Source: Patescibacteria group bacterium (GTDB taxonomy: Bacteria; Patescibacteriota; Minisyncoccia; Moranbacterales; JAKLHP01). From it: DNA of 64,000 bases. The translations under genes were made by a program, and so were the position numbers. The notes beneath the pieces are model-generated. The model was not told where the DNA came from, did no database searches, and saw nothing but the letters and a program-made list of their open reading frames with translations. Position 1 is the first letter of the stretch. Each line of letters starts with the position of its first letter. The stretch covers positions 3,092-67,091 of the forward strand of contig JAZDKA010000009.1 in assembly GCA_043803385.1 (NCBI GenBank), given 5' to 3'. Of the stretch, positions 3,244 through 60,311 are shown piece by piece.

Positions 3244-6200
3244 GTGATTTTTATTATCATGTTTAAAAAAATCGATCCAAAAATGAAATTTCCCGAGGTG
3301 GAAAAAGAGATACTGAAGTTTTGGGAAGAAAACAAGATATTTGAAAAGTCAGTTGAAAAAAATCCTGAGGACAACTCTTTTATATTTTACGAAGGTCCGC
3401 CAACGGCTAATGGTGTGCCGGGGCTTCACCATGTCTTAGCCCGGGCTTTTAAAGATATTATTCCAAGATACAAGACCATGAAAGGCTATCGAGTGGAAAG
3501 AAAAGCCGGTTGGGATACTCACGGGCTTCCGGTTGAAATCCAAGTCGAGAAAGAATTAGGAATCCATCAAAAATCCGAAATTGAAAATATTGTTCCGGGA
3601 AATCCAAGAGAAAGCATCATTGAGTTTAACAAGAAATGTAAAGAATCAGTTTGGAAATTTAAGGATTTATGGGAACAAATGACTAGAAGGATGGGATATT
3701 GGGTGGATATGGAACATCCTTATATTACTTATGAAAATAAATACATTGAATCGGTCTGGTGGGTGATAGCACAAATTGCCAAGCTAAAAACAGAAAAAGG
3801 CGAACCGGTTTTATATCAAGGGCATAAAGTTATTCCCTATTGTTACCGATGCGGAACAGCGCTTTCTTCGCATGAAGTCGCGCAAGGATACCAGAAAGTG
3901 AAAGACAATTCAGTTTTTGTAAAATTTCATTTAAAACTTGGACAAAAGTGGGCGGGGGAAAAATACGAGACAAAAGAATCAGTCTATGCGCTTGTCTGGA
4001 CAACTACGCCGTGGACATTGCCTGGCAATGTTGCATTAGCAGTTAATGAAAACATTTCTTATACCGCATTAAGAATAAATGGCATAAAAGAGCTGATAAT
4101 CTTAGCTAGTGATCAAGTTAAGAATATTCTAAGCGATAAAGATATTGAAATTATTCATAATGATATCAAGGGGAAAGATTTATTGGGTCTTGAATATGAA
4201 CCGCTTTATAAAACTAATAATACTGATAAAAAAGCTTATTATGTAATTTCCGGAGATTTTATCACCACTCAAGAAGGAACGAGCATTGTCCATATTGCTC
4301 CGGCTTTTGGGGAGGATGATTCTAATGTTGGTAGGGAAAACGATTTGCCAACACTTTCTACTGTTGATATTGAGGGAAAAATAATTAAAGGAATGAATAT
4401 TCCTGGAGAAGGTATTCCCGTAAAGAAAAAAAATGACAAAAATAAATATGAAGTTGATAATTTAATCATTGAAGATTTAAAGAATAGAAAATTATTATTC
4501 AAAGAAGAACTTTATGAGCATGATTATCCTTTCTGCTGGAGATGTGATACCCCTCTCATTTATTATGCCAAACCGTCGTGGTTTGTCCGAATGAGCGCAT
4601 TCAGAGAAATACTCGAAAAAAATAATCAAAATATAAATTGGATTCCGGAATATATCAAAGAAGGAAGATTTGGCGAGTGGCTTCGCGATGCCAAAGACTG
4701 GGCGATTTCAAGAGACCGATATTGGGGAACCCCGCTTCCGATTTGGAAATGTAAAGAATGCGGGAAAATAAAAGTTGTTGAATCAGTCGATGAAATAAAA
4801 GAACAGCTGGGAAATCCGAATAAATTATTTTTAATCCGCCACGGAGAAGCGGAGAATAATATTGAGGAAATTATTAGTTGTTTCCCCGAAAAAATCGATT
4901 ATCATCTTACTCCGAAAGGAAAAGAACAAATTAAAACAGTAGCTGAGCAATTTAGAAGTGTAAAGATTTCTGCTATATATTCCTCTCCACTTAAGCGCGC
5001 ACAAGAAACAGCCGAGATTATTTCCCAGATTACTGGAGCTGAAGTTATTATTGATGATCGTATCAGGGAGATGGATCTTAACGGGTTAAATGGAATAAAA
5101 ACAGATGATTTCAGAAAAATATATCTAAATGAAATACTTAATTTGAATACCGATGAACATGGAGTAGAAGGTTATAATCAGGCAGCAGAAAGATTAAAAT
5201 CATTTGTTAGCAATATAAACGAAAAATATCAAAGTGAGAATATAATAATTATATCACATGGAAATCCGCTGAAAGTTTTAGAAGGAATATGCAATGGCAA
5301 GAAAATAGAAGAATTAAAAAATGATACATATCTTGGAAAAGGAGAAATTAGAACCGTATATTCCAAATTATTTGATTTGCATAAACCATATATTGATGAA
5401 ATAACTTTCAAATGCGAATGCGGAGGAGAAATGAAAAGAGAATCGGAAGTGATGGATGTTTGGTTTGATTCCGGCTCAATGCCGACCGCCCAATTCCATT
5501 ATCCATTTGGCGCATCAAAAGAAGACAAGGAAAAAATCGAAAGTGGTAAATTCTATCCGGCGGATTTTATTTCCGAAGCGATTGATCAGACTAGAGGATG
5601 GTTTTACACTCTGCATGCAATTTCTACCCTCTTAAATGCGAACAAAAAAGTTCCGACCGGGCTTGCCTTTAAAAATGTAATTTGTTTGGGTCATGTTCTT
5701 GACGCACAAGGAAAGAAAATGAGCAAATCCAAAGGGAATATTATTGATCCGATGGAAGTGATGGATAAATACGGAGCCGATATACTCCGCTGGATGTTAT
5801 ACACGATAAATCAGCCCGGACTTCCTAAAAGATTTGATATCAAGAAAATGAACGAAATCATGAATCGGGTTTTCCGAATGCTTTGGAATTCGTATTCGTT
5901 TTTTGTGATGTATGCGAATATAGATAAATTCAAGCCAGTGAACAGTGAACAGGGAACAGGGAACAGTAAAAATTTATTAGACAAGTGGATTTTGTCAGAG
6001 CTTCAGGTTTTAATAAAAAATGTTGACGAAAAATTAAATAAATATGATATTTATAATGCTGGAAATTTAATCGAAAAATTCATTGATAATCTTTCCAACT
6101 GGTATATCCGCCGAAGCAGAAAGAGATTCTGGAAAAGCGAGAATGACGCAGATAAAAATGAAGCCTATCAAACTTTGCATTATGTCCTAGTTGAACTTTC

Positions 6201-6957
6201 AAAATTAATGGCGCCGTTTACGCCGTTTATCTCCGAAGAGATTTATCGAAATCTAGTTGCCCCTCACCCCAACCCTCTCCCAGAGGGAGAGGGGGGTGTT
6301 GTGTCTGTACATCTAGCTGATTTTCCCAAAGCGGATGAAAGCTTGATTGATGAGAAATTGAATGGGGAAATGAAATTGGTTCGCAACATAGTAACTCAAA
6401 ATCTAGAAGTGCGTGCAGCATCAAGAATAAAAGTTCGTCAGCCGCTAAATACGTTATTGATTTCTGGATATGAATTTAATAAAAATTTATTGGAAATTAT
6501 TTCTAATGAAGTAAATGTAAAAAAATGTGTTGTATCAGATGAGTCTGGCATTGAAGACGCAGAGAAAAAGGGATATATAAAGAGAGTTTTCTTTGATGAA
6601 TCTATCCAACAAGGAAAAAGATATTCTATTCAGGAGCCAATTAAACCAAGTCAGGCAGGCGTTAGGTTAAGCACTGCTTTAGACACCGAAATTACCGAAG
6701 ACCTGAAGCTTGAAGGGCAAGCTCGGGAAATTATTCGCCATATCCAGGAAATGCGGAAAGAAGCAGGCTTTGAAGTTGACAACCGGATAAAAATAGGATA
6801 TATTGGAATGTCTAAGGTTTTTGATAAATTTAGTTCCTTGATAACCAAAGAAACTTTGGCTGAAAATATGGATCTTGAAATTATAGAAGAATGTGATCTT
6901 AAGAAAGAATTTAAGATCGATGGAGAAAAATTAGAACTAAGTATCAAAAAAATATAA
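3244..6957 (+). CDS. ileS: Isoleucyl-tRNA synthetase carrying an inserted histidine-phosphatase (PGAM-like) domain and a 20-aa palindromic mini-insertion
   Basis: HIGH-like PTANGVPGLHHV, TTTPWTLP editing motif, CWRC zinc knuckle, KMSKS. Residues ~528-715 (LFLIRHGE...IIISHGNPL) match histidine-phosphatase branch-1 motifs. They lie between the WKCKEC and FKCECG cysteine pairs. Confidence 0.9.
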   Translation: MIFIIMFKKIDPKMKFPEVEKEILKFWEENKIFEKSVEKNPEDNSFIFYEGPPTANGVPGLHHVLARAFKDIIPRYKTMKGYRVERKAGWDTHGLPVEIQVEKELGIHQKSEIENIVPGNPRESIIEFNKKCKESVWKFKDLWEQMTRRMGYWVDMEHPYITYENKYIESVWWVIAQIAKLKTEKGEPVLYQGHKVIPYCYRCGTALSSHEVAQGYQKVKDNSVFVKFHLKLGQKWAGEKYETKESVYALVWTTTPWTLPGNVALAVNENISYTALRINGIKELIILASDQVKNILSDKDIEIIHNDIKGKDLLGLEYEPLYKTNNTDKKAYYVISGDFITTQEGTSIVHIAPAFGEDDSNVGRENDLPTLSTVDIEGKIIKGMNIPGEGIPVKKKNDKNKYEVDNLIIEDLKNRKLLFKEELYEHDYPFCWRCDTPLIYYAKPSWFVRMSAFREILEKNNQNINWIPEYIKEGRFGEWLRDAKDWAISRDRYWGTPLPIWKCKECGKIKVVESVDEIKEQLGNPNKLFLIRHGEAENNIEEIISCFPEKIDYHLTPKGKEQIKTVAEQFRSVKISAIYSSPLKRAQETAEIISQITGAEVIIDDRIREMDLNGLNGIKTDDFRKIYLNEILNLNTDEHGVEGYNQAAERLKSFVSNINEKYQSENIIIISHGNPLKVLEGICNGKKIEELKNDTYLGKGEIRTVYSKLFDLHKPYIDEITFKCECGGEMKRESEVMDVWFDSGSMPTAQFHYPFGASKEDKEKIESGKFYPADFISEAIDQTRGWFYTLHAISTLLNANKKVPTGLAFKNVICLGHVLDAQGKKMSKSKGNIIDPMEVMDKYGADILRWMLYTINQPGLPKRFDIKKMNEIMNRVFRMLWNSYSFFVMYANIDKFKPVNSEQGTGNSKNLLDKWILSELQVLIKNVDEKLNKYDIYNAGNLIEKFIDNLSNWYIRRSRKRFWKSENDADKNEAYQTLHYVLVELSKLMAPFTPFISEEIYRNLVAPHPNPLPEGEGGVVSVHLADFPKADESLIDEKLNGEMKLVRNIVTQNLEVRAASRIKVRQPLNTLLISGYEFNKNLLEIISNEVNVKKCVVSDESGIEDAEKKGYIKRVFFDESIQQGKRYSIQEPIKPSQAGVRLSTALDTEITEDLKLEGQAREIIRHIQEMRKEAGFEVDNRIKIGYIGMSKVFDKFSSLITKETLAENMDLEIIEECDLKKEFKIDGEKLELSIKKI

Positions 6958-6968
6958 AGGGGGTATTT

Positions 6969-7139
6969 ATGACAGTATATATCTGGGGATCATTGTTTGC
7001 GGGAGTACTTTTCATATCGTTGCTCTTTAAAACCTTTGGATTGAAGTGCCCAAAATGCAAGAGCAGCAATGTGAAATACATTGCAGGCAGAAATGTTATT
7101 CACTGCAACAAATGCAGAAAAGCATATTATGCAAATTAA
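6969..7139 (+). CDS. Small membrane-anchored zinc-ribbon protein (56 aa). Not in the ORF track (below its size cutoff)
   Basis: AAGGGGG SD 6 nt upstream of the ATG. One TM helix then CPKC...CNKC. Paralog of the next gene. Confidence 0.5.
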   Translation: MTVYIWGSLFAGVLFISLLFKTFGLKCPKCKSSNVKYIAGRNVIHCNKCRKAYYAN

Positions 7140-7149
7140 GGAGGTTAAG

Positions 7150-7311
7150 ATGAACTTTTGGTCAAGTCAGTTGTTTAATCTACTGGTAGGTATAATCGTA
7201 TTTGCTATAGGAATTTTTGGCATTTGCAAGCCGCATGAGTGTCCCAAATGCGGAAAACATATACTTTTCCATAATCCGTGGAAGAGACACGAATGTGCGC
7301 CGGGAGGATAA
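7150..7311 (+). CDS. Small membrane-anchored zinc-ribbon protein (paralog of 6969..7139)
   Basis: AAGGAGG SD, TM helix, CPKC...HEC. The track ORF 7081 starts at TTG; ATG 7150 with the SD is the likelier start. Confidence 0.55.
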   Translation: MNFWSSQLFNLLVGIIVFAIGIFGICKPHECPKCGKHILFHNPWKRHECAPGG

Positions 7312-7321
7312 GAGTTTTCAT

Positions 7322-7355
7322 GCCCAACCTTAGAAGTTTCAAGGTTGGGCGTTTT
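7322..7355 (+). terminator. Rho-independent terminator
   Basis: GCCCAACCTT-loop-AAGGTTGGGC followed by GTTTT. Confidence 0.7.
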
Positions 7356-12873: not shown

Positions 12874-13136
12874 CGATTAGTTTTTATCTATGAAAAATAG
12901 GACATTATATTTCGGTGATAATTTAGAAATACTCCGCAAGAAAATTACGGAAACCTTGACTTTTGGCTTAAAATACGCTATAATTAGACATAGTGAATAG
13001 AAAGCCTAGCAAAGAAGGCTTTAAAAAAGGGGAAATTGGAAGGGTGTTTCGAGGGTGAAACACTTTTTTGTTTTTTCCTGTAAATTACGCCAGCCCAAGG
13101 CTGGTCCGCCTATGGCGGAAATATGCGAATATTATT

Positions 13137-13988
13137 ATGAAAATTAAGGAATTATTTAAAAAAAGAAGGATAGTTTATTCAGCTACGGTCTTAGCTGTGT
13201 TTTTTGCCTGCTTTAATTTTGCTTTTGCCAGTGAGATTACCAGGGAAAATATTGTAAATCTGGTCAATCAGTCAAGAACGGAAAACGGGCTTCCTGCCCT
13301 TTCCGAGAACGAAAAACTCGATAAGGCCGCCCAGGACAAGGCAAATGATATGATAGCCAATAATTATTTTGCCCATACTTCTCCCAGCGGGATAACACCT
13401 TGGTTTTGGATCGAAAAAAACGGATACGATTACCAATATGCCGGAGAAAATCTGGCACTTGGATTTTCAACAGTGGAAAATGAACACCAAGCGTGGATGA
13501 ACAGCCCGACTCACAAAAAAAATATTCTTAATACTAATTATGAAGAAATTGGGGTTGCAGTTGGCAAAGGAGTGATAGAAAATAACACGGTAACTGTTGC
13601 TGTCCAAACATTTGGAACGCAAGCCGGAAGTTTAAAAGAAGAAAAAAAAGAAAATAATATTCCGGACATTAAGCCGAAAAATGATGGCAACGGAATTGTC
13701 CTTAACCTGGACGGATCAAAAAATTCCGGAAGCGGAAATTCCAGCGATTTGTTCAAGGGAAATGAATTTAAGCTCAAGGCAAACTGGTCTAGCGTGAAAG
13801 AATTTTTATCTAATCCCTGGATTGCGTCAATGGTTATCGTTCTGGCATTTTGCCTAATTATAAATATTTTTGTGCTAATGATAATATTTCTGCATCATGC
13901 CAACAACAGGTTGAGAAAAAATCAGGAAGCATTTAAAATGGTTAATACAATAATTATTCTATTGATCATTGCCTCGATAACATTCTAA
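13137..13988 (+). CDS. CAP/SCP/PR-1 domain protein (YkwD-like), N-terminal signal anchor and C-terminal TM
   Basis: NNYFAHTSPSG...GENLA...HQAWMNSPTHKKNIL CAP signature. Likely start MKIKELFKK at 13137 (track ORF extends to 13068). Confidence 0.75.
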   Translation: MKIKELFKKRRIVYSATVLAVFFACFNFAFASEITRENIVNLVNQSRTENGLPALSENEKLDKAAQDKANDMIANNYFAHTSPSGITPWFWIEKNGYDYQYAGENLALGFSTVENEHQAWMNSPTHKKNILNTNYEEIGVAVGKGVIENNTVTVAVQTFGTQAGSLKEEKKENNIPDIKPKNDGNGIVLNLDGSKNSGSGNSSDLFKGNEFKLKANWSSVKEFLSNPWIASMVIVLAFCLIINIFVLMIIFLHHANNRLRKNQEAFKMVNTIIILLIIASITF

Positions 13989-37799: not shown

Positions 37800-38594
37800 A
37801 TGAATCCAAAGAATAAAAAACTTTTAATCACTGGAACTGGAATTTTGATTTTGCTTTTGGGAATCGGAATTGGGCTTGGGCTGGGGAAAATATTTTCATT
37901 ATCGAAAAGCCAGAGCGCACAGAGTGAAAATAAAATCACAAAGGAAAAGGGTGGCGAAAATCAATCTTCGGTTGGCGAATTTAAGGTCAGCCGTGTTATT
38001 GACGGCGACACGATTGAAATTGAGGGCGGGGAGCGGGTGAGATATATCGGCATTGATACGCCCGAAACGGTTGATCCTCGAAAACCGGTCCAATGTTTTG
38101 GTGTAGAAGCGTCTAATAAAAATAAAGAACTAGTGGAAGGTAAAACTGTGCGTTTAGAAAAAGACACGACTGATCGAGATAAATATAATCGGCTGTTGCG
38201 CTATGTTTATGTTGGCGAGACTTTCATCAATTTGGAATTAGTGAAGCTTGGTTTTGCTTATTCCTATTCCTATCCGCCGGACATCAAGTATCAAGATCAA
38301 ATTGTGAAAGCCCAGCAAGAAGCGGAAAAATCCAAAAACGGACTTTGGAACGCTTGTCCTCTGGATGCGTCTAAATCCACTACTGTTTCCAAAGAGGATA
38401 TTCCCAAAAAAGATGCTTCCAATGATTGCGCTATTAAGGGCAATATCAGCACGAGCGGTGAAAAAATTTATCACCTTTCCGTCTGCGGTTCTTATGCTAA
38501 AACAACCATTGAAGAAATCCGCGGGGAACGCTGGTTCTGCTCAGAAGCCGAAGCCCAAGCCGCTGGCTGGCGAAAGGCTCTGAATTGTCAATAA
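37800..38594 (+). CDS. Membrane-anchored/secreted thermonuclease (SNase-like) with Cys-containing C-terminal domain
   Basis: [10 protein letters not shown]...[10 protein letters not shown] Staphylococcal-nuclease motif. N-terminal TM. C-terminal GE.WFC.EAEA.AAGWR module. Confidence 0.85.
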
Positions 38595-38784
38595 AGAATT
38601 TCAGCCCAAGGCTGATCCCCTCCAAAGGCAGGCAGGCACCTCTGGCGGAAATTACATATCTAATTACTTACGTAATAAATTTATAGCCAAACGTGTCATT
38701 TATCTACGGCCGTGGGAAGATGACACATTCTATAAATTAAAAATAACAAAAAATCATAATTTCCGATTGGAAAAAATAGCAAGT

Positions 38785-59910: not shown

Positions 59911-59982
59911 GCCGCCATCGTCTAGTGGTTAGGACAACAGGTTTTCATCCTGTAAACAGGGGTTCGATTCCCCTTGGCGGTA
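59911..59982 (+). tRNA. tRNA-Glu (anticodon TTC)
   Basis: GCCGCCA acceptor. Short D-stem GTC/GAC. Anticodon arm ACAGG-TTTTCAT-CCTGT. TTCGATT T-loop. Confidence 0.8.
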
Positions 59983-60116
59983 CATTGATTATTTTAATTT
60001 TTTTGATATAATGAGTTTGTTTTGACAATTTAATATTATTCCGCGGTAGCCCCGACGCAAGGTCGGGGTCCCGACTGAAACGTCGGGACTCAATGGTCCC
60101 AGCACCAAACTTTTGC

Positions 60117-60188
60117 TCCGGCGTAGCTCAATGGTAGAGCAGTTGACTGTTAATCAATTGGTTGTAGGTTCGAATCCTACCGCCGGAG
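60117..60188 (+). tRNA. tRNA-Asn (anticodon GTT)
   Basis: TCCGGCG/CGCCGGA acceptor. TAGCTCAATGGTAGAGC D-arm. Anticodon loop CTGTTAA. G73. Confidence 0.8.
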
Positions 60189-60311
60189 CAAAAAGTTGGT
60201 ACGGGATAAGGCTTCGCTAAGGTTGAACCTTAGCGGCGTAAACAGGGCTCATAAAAATTCCAAAAATAAAATTAATAATCAGTTTATTTATTTTTTAATA
60301 GCTTAAAAAAT

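Follow-up and report, generated by a model that had tools for sequence, protein, structure and literature searches.

What kind of DNA is a GC-rich palindrome that lies in frame within an essential gene of an AT-rich genome, and how did it come to be there? The question was raised by a 64,000-nucleotide stretch from a Patescibacteria group bacterium (assembly GCA_043803385.1, contig JAZDKA010000009.1, positions 3,092 to 67,091; the whole stretch is called the window here), in which ileS, the gene for isoleucyl-tRNA synthetase (IleRS), contains such a palindrome. By its sequence, the element at window positions 6261 to 6294 belongs to the BoxC/PIT/TMECO triplex-motif family, and its position inside a gene is a new kind of occurrence of this known family. 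These repeats are among the oldest unexplained repeats of bacteria; they have been held to be strictly intergenic, to have no mobilizing enzyme, and to have only a statistical tie to local instability. The ileS locus shows that an essential gene can take up such a repeat in frame, and that this occurs in a phylum whose genomes are small and AT-rich.

Positions 6261 to 6293, read from the sequence, consist of a C-rich strand followed by a hairpin, CCCTCACCCC-AA-CCCTCTCCC-AGA-GGGAGAGGG. An inverted-repeat search identified positions 6273 to 6293 as a perfect palindrome (9 + 9 bp, arms CCCTCTCCC and GGGAGAGGG, 3-nt loop AGA, 100% complementary). This 21-nt core occurred once in the 64 kb, and 0 of 100 dinucleotide-preserving shuffles matched it. 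The 40-nt stretch containing the element had a GC content of 72.5%, compared to a window mean of 37% (standard deviation, 10%); three other stretches reached 72.5 to 77.5%. The 90-nt region around the element was predicted to fold as RNA at -30.5 kcal/mol (z = -2.6). The GGGTG that follows the right arm may be left over from a 3' G-strand, or its presence may be fortuitous; fully palindromic copies with a C3-hairpin-G3 layout exist elsewhere (e.g., at locus L058). Searches of Rfam, with the whole window at the gathering threshold and with a 271-nt region at E values of up to 10, returned tRNAs and chance-level matches alone. The ileS hairpin was the sole perfect GC-rich hairpin of at least 8 bp in any of the window's open reading frames (ORFs), which rules out a general invasion of the window of the kind known for Rickettsia palindromic elements (RPEs).

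The family assignment was based on a published pattern and on a profile. Holder et al. (2015; PMC4666352) described a G/C-rich "intrastrand triplex motif," TMECO, earlier named BoxC and PIT, with the pattern CCCTCNCCC-N3-6-GGGNGAGGG-N3-GGGNGAGGG. They reported 3610 copies in 262 proteobacterial genomes, found that the 23 copies of Escherichia coli K-12 were all intergenic, and found TMECO loci to be more variable between strains than control loci (PMC4666352). The minus strand of window positions 6261 to 6293, CCCTCTCCC-TCT-GGGAGAGGG-TTG-GGGTGAGGG, was an exact fit to this pattern. When 138 copies from other phyla were made into an nhmmer profile, the site scored an E value of 3.9e-10. The window element and the published ones share three 9- to 10-nt blocks (C-rich, C-rich, and G-rich), short loops, and equal size, and the block sequences CCCTCTCCC and CCCTCACCC are common to the window and E. 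coli copies. For the window copy, the hairpin was predicted from the sequence. The window copy differs from the E. coli K-12 copies in lying in frame inside the essential ileS of an AT-rich, Patescibacteria-like genome; intergenic location is a trait of the K-12 copies rather than part of the family definition.

The family also proved wider than the published proteobacterial count. A scan of the collection, with one genome per species, for CCCTCACCCC-N1-4-CCCTCTCCC-N3-6-GGGAGAGGG returned at least 120 loci. The matches listed included Alpha-, Beta-, and Gammaproteobacteria, Chloroflexota, Planctomycetota, Acidobacteriota, Verrucomicrobiota, Thermodesulfobacteriota, Myxococcota, Cyanobacteriota, Bacteroidota, Omnitrophota, Bipolaricaulota, and WOR-3. 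Across these phyla the copies shared the core of about 34 nt alone; their flanks were unrelated, with no common flanking repeat. BoxC and PIT are reportedly also attributed to Bachellier et al. and to Hoyne and Maher (2000). An earlier sequence-only reading of the window had taken the palindrome for one copy of a repeated family, and this was borne out by the large number of copies elsewhere; the core was found in many phyla and only once in the window itself, where a mismatch search, the published pattern, and the nhmmer profile detected no copy besides that in ileS. The boundaries in that reading, which made the element 51 bp long, gave way to a recognizable element of about 34 nt.

The element lies in frame within an ileS ORF of 1237 aa, whose best homologues were from Moranbacteria/Patescibacteria (BLASTP identity of 59% or less) and whose nearest solved structure was that of the IleRS2 protein 8c9d. 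In an alignment of 120 homologues, orthologs had 4 residues (consensus T-G-E-E) between the segments ...EEIYRNL and SVHLADFP, whereas the window protein had 16, VAPHPNPLPEGEGGVV. Ortholog alignment and codon comparison gave a net gain of 12 aa (36 nt), and not the 20 aa (60 nt) that had been proposed. No insert was present in 8c9d, which reads ENLTG-KSVHL at the loop, and the closest orthologs, P0004 and P0001, had TGEE/TVEE at the site. In these alignments the ileS palindrome is thus an insertion relative to the closest orthologs, and the in-frame palindrome described in the sequence-only reading is real and missing from those orthologs. The same peptide core was found in L124 and P0012 alone, neither of which is among the closest relatives of the window, and so was not a feature shared by diverse orthologs.

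A predicted AlphaFold model of the C-terminal 385 aa (mean predicted local distance difference test [pLDDT] score, 88) placed the insert as a coil between a helix (segment residues 142 to 153) and the SVH turn. The pLDDT was approximately 71 over the two 10-residue blocks covering the insert, compared to 92 to 95 on either side. According to this model, the element sits in frame in a loop of IleRS, at a position resembling the surface loop that had been suspected. The C-rich strand contained no stop codon in any of the three frames. No IleS gene broken at the hairpin site was found among 73 further sequences checked, which fits purifying selection for the reading frame.

Other features of the host gene were observed. 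A complete histidine-phosphatase domain (His_Phos_1, PF00300, E = 2.7e-36) lies within the catalytic region of the window IleRS (window positions 4825 to 5316; IleS residues 528 to 691). According to precomputed Pfam lists, PF00300 is also present in two Moranbacteria IleS homologues, P0040 and P0042; the IleS of L124 (988 aa) lacks the domain. In some Patescibacteria, as at two loci here, IleS was called as two adjacent genes (L201:33-2742, 527 aa plus 371 aa; L203:8184-11788, 605 aa plus 595 aa), with a split point that was not at the hairpin site, and many IleS database matches are labeled as such "partial" pieces.

The same loop was occupied in other lineages as well. Inserts of at least 8 aa at the NL/SVHL loop were present in 33 of 178 (19%) Patescibacteria-type IleS C-terminal sequences; other IleS positions in these sequences had 1 to 13 inserts of this length each, only few of them hairpin-like. 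The loop also contained an insert in 8 of 80 orthologous metagenome loci. Orthologs with longer, non-Patescibacteria-type loops had a stable 10-aa VRSVxPxAPE. The triplex motif was read in the frame PHPNPLPEGEG in the window, L124, and L202 (P0012), in the frame SPQPSPSKGEG in L201 (P0028), and in the frame LTPTLS in L203 (P0090), and, judged from the peptides, it lay in the opposite orientation in P0016 (PLQGEGWGE) and P0022 (PSPVTGRGAGGEG). L124, with NL-TSPHPNPLPEGEGVPV-SVHL, matched the window in site, frame, and length; the two cores differed at about 2 of 33 positions (approximately 94% identity), while flanking synonymous sites differed freely. The hairpin in L202, CCCTCTCCC-AGA-GGGAGAGGG, was identical to that of the window and was preceded by another, small, nested hairpin. 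A variant, TCCTCTCCT...AGGAGAGGA, likewise with a C-rich third strand, was found in L125 and L126, and decayed versions of the motif were found at the loop in L121 and L129. Unrelated GC-rich hairpin inserts at the loop encoded CHSGLDPES, RHSREGGNP, GHPERS, GVETRLIASLQ, NPPLRKGE...PSPFEKGG, and LRQGSGEP.

Carriers of the motif were not each other's nearest relatives. Identity to the window IleS was 67% for the insert-free P0004 and P0001, compared to 58% for L124 and P0012, and the nearest relatives of L124 and P0012 were the insert-free P0030 and P0045, respectively. Because three frames, two orientations, and other hairpin families were found at the site, several independent events are required. 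Across the aligned sequences, this one loop of IleRS is a recurrent landing site, reached many times and by several hairpin families. A second intact motif copy was found in L124, in the spacer upstream of recO and 1.4 kb downstream of the ileS copy (two copies in 17 kb), and the motif is therefore multicopy in at least one related genome. Besides that copy, the L124 spacer contains a 113-aa Cys-rich ORF; the equivalent spacer of the window (6957 to 7345) contains two very small CxxC...CxxC ORFs between ileS and a recO-like gene.

The likely explanation of the locus is that a solo BoxC/PIT/TMECO copy was inserted into a loop of IleRS, where it is translated and does little harm, that this loop has been hit repeatedly, and that DUF559 nucleases probably spread or maintain the family. 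A three-block copy, in which the C-rich strand is repeated by the two arms of a 9-bp hairpin, entered ileS with the net gain of 36 nt, landing in the short loop between the helix ending in ...EEIYRNL and SVHLADFP in the anticodon-binding domain. As no frame of the C-rich strand is closed and extra length is tolerated in the loop, the insert would most likely be simply translated into the Pro/Gly-rich coil PHPNPLPEGEG and would be retained since it does little harm. The loop in Patescibacteria has been hit over and over, independently, by the triplex motif and by other GC-rich hairpin repeats. Two likely causes, in combination, of such a hot spot are a propensity of hairpins, at the DNA level, for inserting at one site or displacing each other there and selection that would purge insertions from nearly all other parts of an essential gene. 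Microhomology of the purine arm with the ancestral GGN-GAR-GAR codons was set aside as a cause, since unrelated hairpin families use the same site.

Among the alternatives, the one that survives best, although it appears improbable, is that the hairpin is selected for a role in ileS DNA or mRNA (as a translational pause between domains, a stabilizer, a processing site, or a recombination or replication signal) for which any GC-rich hairpin would serve. Such a role would suit the finding that about 19% of lineages have hairpins of different families at precisely this site, but approximately 80% of orthologs, including the nearest relatives of the window, have no insert. The window copy is a perfect hairpin, and the core shared by the window and L124 is far better conserved than neighboring synonymous sites; however, the motif occurs in both orientations and in every frame, which leaves no one RNA structure conserved, and the sister lineages L121 and L129 have decayed copies. 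PIT elements block DNA polymerase in vitro, yet TMECO/PIT elements have no promoter or terminator activity, and the triplex, which forms in vitro in single strands of the E. coli sequence, was not detected in vivo in E. coli (PMC4666352).

Somewhat less probable again is a single ancient insertion, in an ancestor of these Patescibacteria, that passed down vertically, disappeared from many lineages, and was homogenized by gene conversion from other copies in the genome. The common site, frame, and orientation of the window, L124, and L202, together with the common length in the window and L124, are what such an origin would leave, and the second copy in L124 is a possible donor; the window is also about as close to L121, with its decayed motif, as to the insert-free P0004. 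One event cannot, however, account for the other frames and the opposite orientation found there, unrelated hairpin families occupy the site, and losses would have had to restore T-G-E-E precisely in dozens of lineages.

The sequence-only reading had favored a miniature transposable element of 51 bp, similar to an RPE or to a miniature inverted-repeat transposable element (MITE), that transposed into ileS and made a 9-bp target-site duplication, ATCTAGTTG/ATCTAGCTG. This now appears very unlikely. The palindromic repeat does lie in frame in an ORF, and an 8/9 direct repeat does flank it. Both repeat copies are merely conserved codons, however, (A)AT-CTA-GTT (N-L-V) and (C)AT-CTA-GCT (H-L-A), and the N-L and S-V-H-L that border the loop are conserved among orthologs. 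L122, an ortholog without the insert, reads AAT CTA ACC GGA AAG GAA TCT GTG CAT CTA GCT and so already has AAT CTA and CAT CTA GCT, and a flanking repeat as good as the proposed one was found at 11% of random window positions with the same boundary freedom. The 9-bp repeat is not a target-site duplication. This also removes the likeness to MITEs, which are defined by terminal inverted repeats plus such a duplication. Moreover, the gain is 36 nt and not 60, and copies elsewhere share the core of approximately 34 nt alone, without flanking repeats.

The comparison to RPEs held in part. RPEs measure approximately 100 to 150 bp and form Rickettsia-specific families that occupy many genes of one genome. 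They are said to have been described by Ogata et al. in 2000. Like RPEs, which are translated as tolerated extra segments at protein surfaces, the window element is a palindromic repeat that lies in frame in a protein gene (here at a coil with a pLDDT of about 71), and this is shared behavior rather than membership. Set against RPEs, the element differs in being about 34 nt long, in occurring across phyla, and in being a lone case in 64 kb; by size, it is not an RPE.

An assembly or binning artifact, in which a chimeric join formed through a short GC-rich repeat of a kind that can misjoin metagenome contigs, has a negligible probability, as conserved IleS continues in frame on both sides and independent assemblies from other samples show an equal arrangement (L124 and L202).

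Copies within genes were also found outside Patescibacteria. Two low-GC loci from the motif scan, L103 and L092, carried the motif inside real genes. In a Muribaculaceae metagenome-assembled genome (MAG) (32% GC; L103:1985-3184), a solo motif, LPLTPTLSRKGRGSS, lay in frame in the GLF domain of UDP-galactopyranose mutase. In a Gastranaerophilales MAG (L092:1774-4404), PriA contained an in-frame block consisting of the motif, a DUF559 domain (PF04480, E = 4e-37), and an inverted motif, just before Walker A; no intein or intron features were noticed in this PriA.

DUF559 genes were associated with the motif more generally. A DUF559 profile had 5 matches in 853 kb around motif copies (full genes in L092, L007, L010, and L028 and a fragment in L033); all five were within 400 nt of a motif, and four were bracketed by two inverted copies. 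Motif-encoded termini were found in 21% of 120 DUF559 homologues, compared to 1.2% of control ORFs; an example is ...GPHPNPLPQTGEGEQT in a Dokdonella protein. Four further DUF559 genes, picked as having no motif-encoded tails and as lying on long contigs, all had the motif on both sides. The arms differed between DUF559 loci (CCCTCTCCC, CCTCCCC, and CCCTTCCCCC), and the three-block layout was kept. In E. coli K-12, ycjD encodes a DUF559 protein; the stop codon of the gene lies within a decayed hairpin, and TMECO #9 is located 170 bp downstream. In total, the motif was near all 9 complete DUF559 genes examined, on both sides in 8 and on the 3' side only for E. coli ycjD. No paper linking DUF559 or ycjD with BoxC/TMECO was found in the library searched. 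As a separate observation, the last approximately 60 nt of ycjD are partly duplicated between the stop codon and TMECO #9 (L204:2300-2420).

The closest parallels to this arrangement are repeats with a dedicated enzyme. Repetitive extragenic palindromic (REP) sequences and their paired forms (REPINs) resemble the triplex motif in being short, imperfect palindromes with many copies (on these systems, see also PMC3733652). The genes of REP-associated tyrosine transposases (RAYTs) are flanked by REPs, as DUF559 genes are by two triplex motifs in inverted orientation. The window element differs in having no GTAG or CGTC tag; neither was present in or beside positions 6256 to 6303 as read from the sequence. 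DUF559, the candidate partner of the triplex motif, is a PD-(D/E)XK Vsr-like nuclease, whereas RAYT is a Y1 HUH transposase. The VSR/DUF559 group of PD-(D/E)XK nucleases is listed as including the characterized homing endonuclease I-Bth0305I (Vsr-like, EDxHD type; PMC3424549). Such enzymes invade conserved genes, and the in-frame DUF559 within a conserved helicase, the PriA of L092, is similar in this respect. Homing endonucleases sit in spliced-out introns or inteins, however, whereas no signs of splicing were found here, and the ileS copy has no nuclease gene.

DUF559 nucleases may therefore be proposed as the enzymes that mobilize the motif. In its full form, put forward tentatively as possible rather than probable, the proposal is that BoxC/PIT/TMECO sequences, for which no origin has been known since the 1990s, are the cis elements of a DUF559 (Vsr-like PD-(D/E)XK) system, as REPs are to RAYTs. 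The nuclease gene would lie between two inverted motifs, with solo motifs as nonautonomous progeny. In AT-rich genomes, solo motifs and whole units alike could insert without a frameshift into loops of proteins that are essential (IleRS, PriA, and UDP-galactopyranose mutase), and the NL/SVHL loop of IleRS would be a recurrent landing site across Patescibacteria.

Several points weigh against the explanation given here for the ileS locus and for the spread of the family. TMECO was reported to have no association with mobile elements (PMC4666352). The window copy is a solo copy, with no adjoining DUF559: tblastn and profile searches detected no DUF559 next to the window motif, anywhere else in the window, or across 880 kb of related IleS loci, the DUF559 profile had 0 matches in the 940-kb control (IleS loci plus the window), and a chimeric query returned no IleS with DUF559 at the loop among the 120 best of 3004 matches. 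The four extra DUF559 genes carry an ascertainment bias, as their subfamily is that of a gene to which the motif itself had led. With just one copy in the 64-kb window, the multicopy status of the motif in the host genome is unproven. The IleS tree was a neighbor-joining tree without support values, identities were within noise such that a single old insertion could be common to the window and L121/L129, and no closely related filled/empty pair at ileS was available to show exact junctions. In E. coli, the filled and empty alleles of tauD-hemB and adk-hemH differed by replacement of the whole intergenic block and not by clean insertion.

With regard to the last of these, comparison of the E. 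coli K-12 spacers tauD-hemB (L205) and adk-hemH (L206) with L207 and L209 showed that strains without TMECO carry an unrelated block with a different GC-rich hairpin. This replacement of hairpin for hairpin resembles the pattern at the ileS loop.

The flanking of DUF559 genes by the motif provides a concrete, testable candidate enzyme for the family, with E. coli ycjD as a tractable place to begin. In annotation work, Pro/Gly-rich peptides such as PHPNPLPEGEG, SPQPSPxxGEG, and GEGWGEG inside proteins are recognizable as translated copies of the repeat. Coordinates of the features at the ileS locus are given in Table 1.

Table 1. Features of ileS and of its in-frame triplex motif (coordinates are window positions).
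Feature	Position	Strand	Basis or remark
ileS ORF, type-2 IleRS, 1237 aa	3244-6957	+	Pfam tRNA-synt_1, Anticodon_1, DUF5915
Left copy of proposed target-site duplication, codons N-L-V, outside element	6251-6259	+	
Loop-coding segment, 16 codons VAPHPNPLPEGEGGVV, versus 4 codons (consensus TGEE) in orthologs	6256-6303	+	Alignment and codon comparison
Recognizable element	6261-6294		About 34 nt
TMECO/PIT/BoxC pattern match	6261-6293	-	One match in window, 0/100 shuffles; nhmmer profile scores 6260-6300
Third strand, C-rich repeat CCCTCACCCC	6261-6270	+	Sequence; kept beside hairpin in 139 copies, many phyla
Left hairpin arm CCCTCTCCC	6273-6281	+	Inverted repeat, 9 nt, 100% complementary, 3-nt loop
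Right hairpin arm GGGAGAGGG	6285-6293	+	Inverted repeat and RNA fold
GGGTG	6294-6298	+	Pairs with CACCC of third strand in predicted RNA fold
Right copy of proposed target-site duplication, codons (H)-L-A of conserved SVHLADFP, outside element	6311-6319	+	

Other GC-rich hairpins were observed in the window. Paired small hairpins, CAGCC-CAAG-GCTG followed by TCCGCC...GGCGGA, were found at positions 13088 to 13120, at the start of ORF 13068-13988, and at positions 38601 to 38650, just after ORF 37800-38594. These two spots may belong to a further family of short repeats or may be a motif with a regulatory or terminator role. Two GC-rich hairpins in tandem, GCCCCGAC-GCAAG-GTCGGGG and GTCCCGAC-TGAAAC-GTCGGGAC, were located at positions 60040 to 60103, in the spacer between tRNA-Glu (59911 to 59983) and tRNA-Asn (60117 to 60189).

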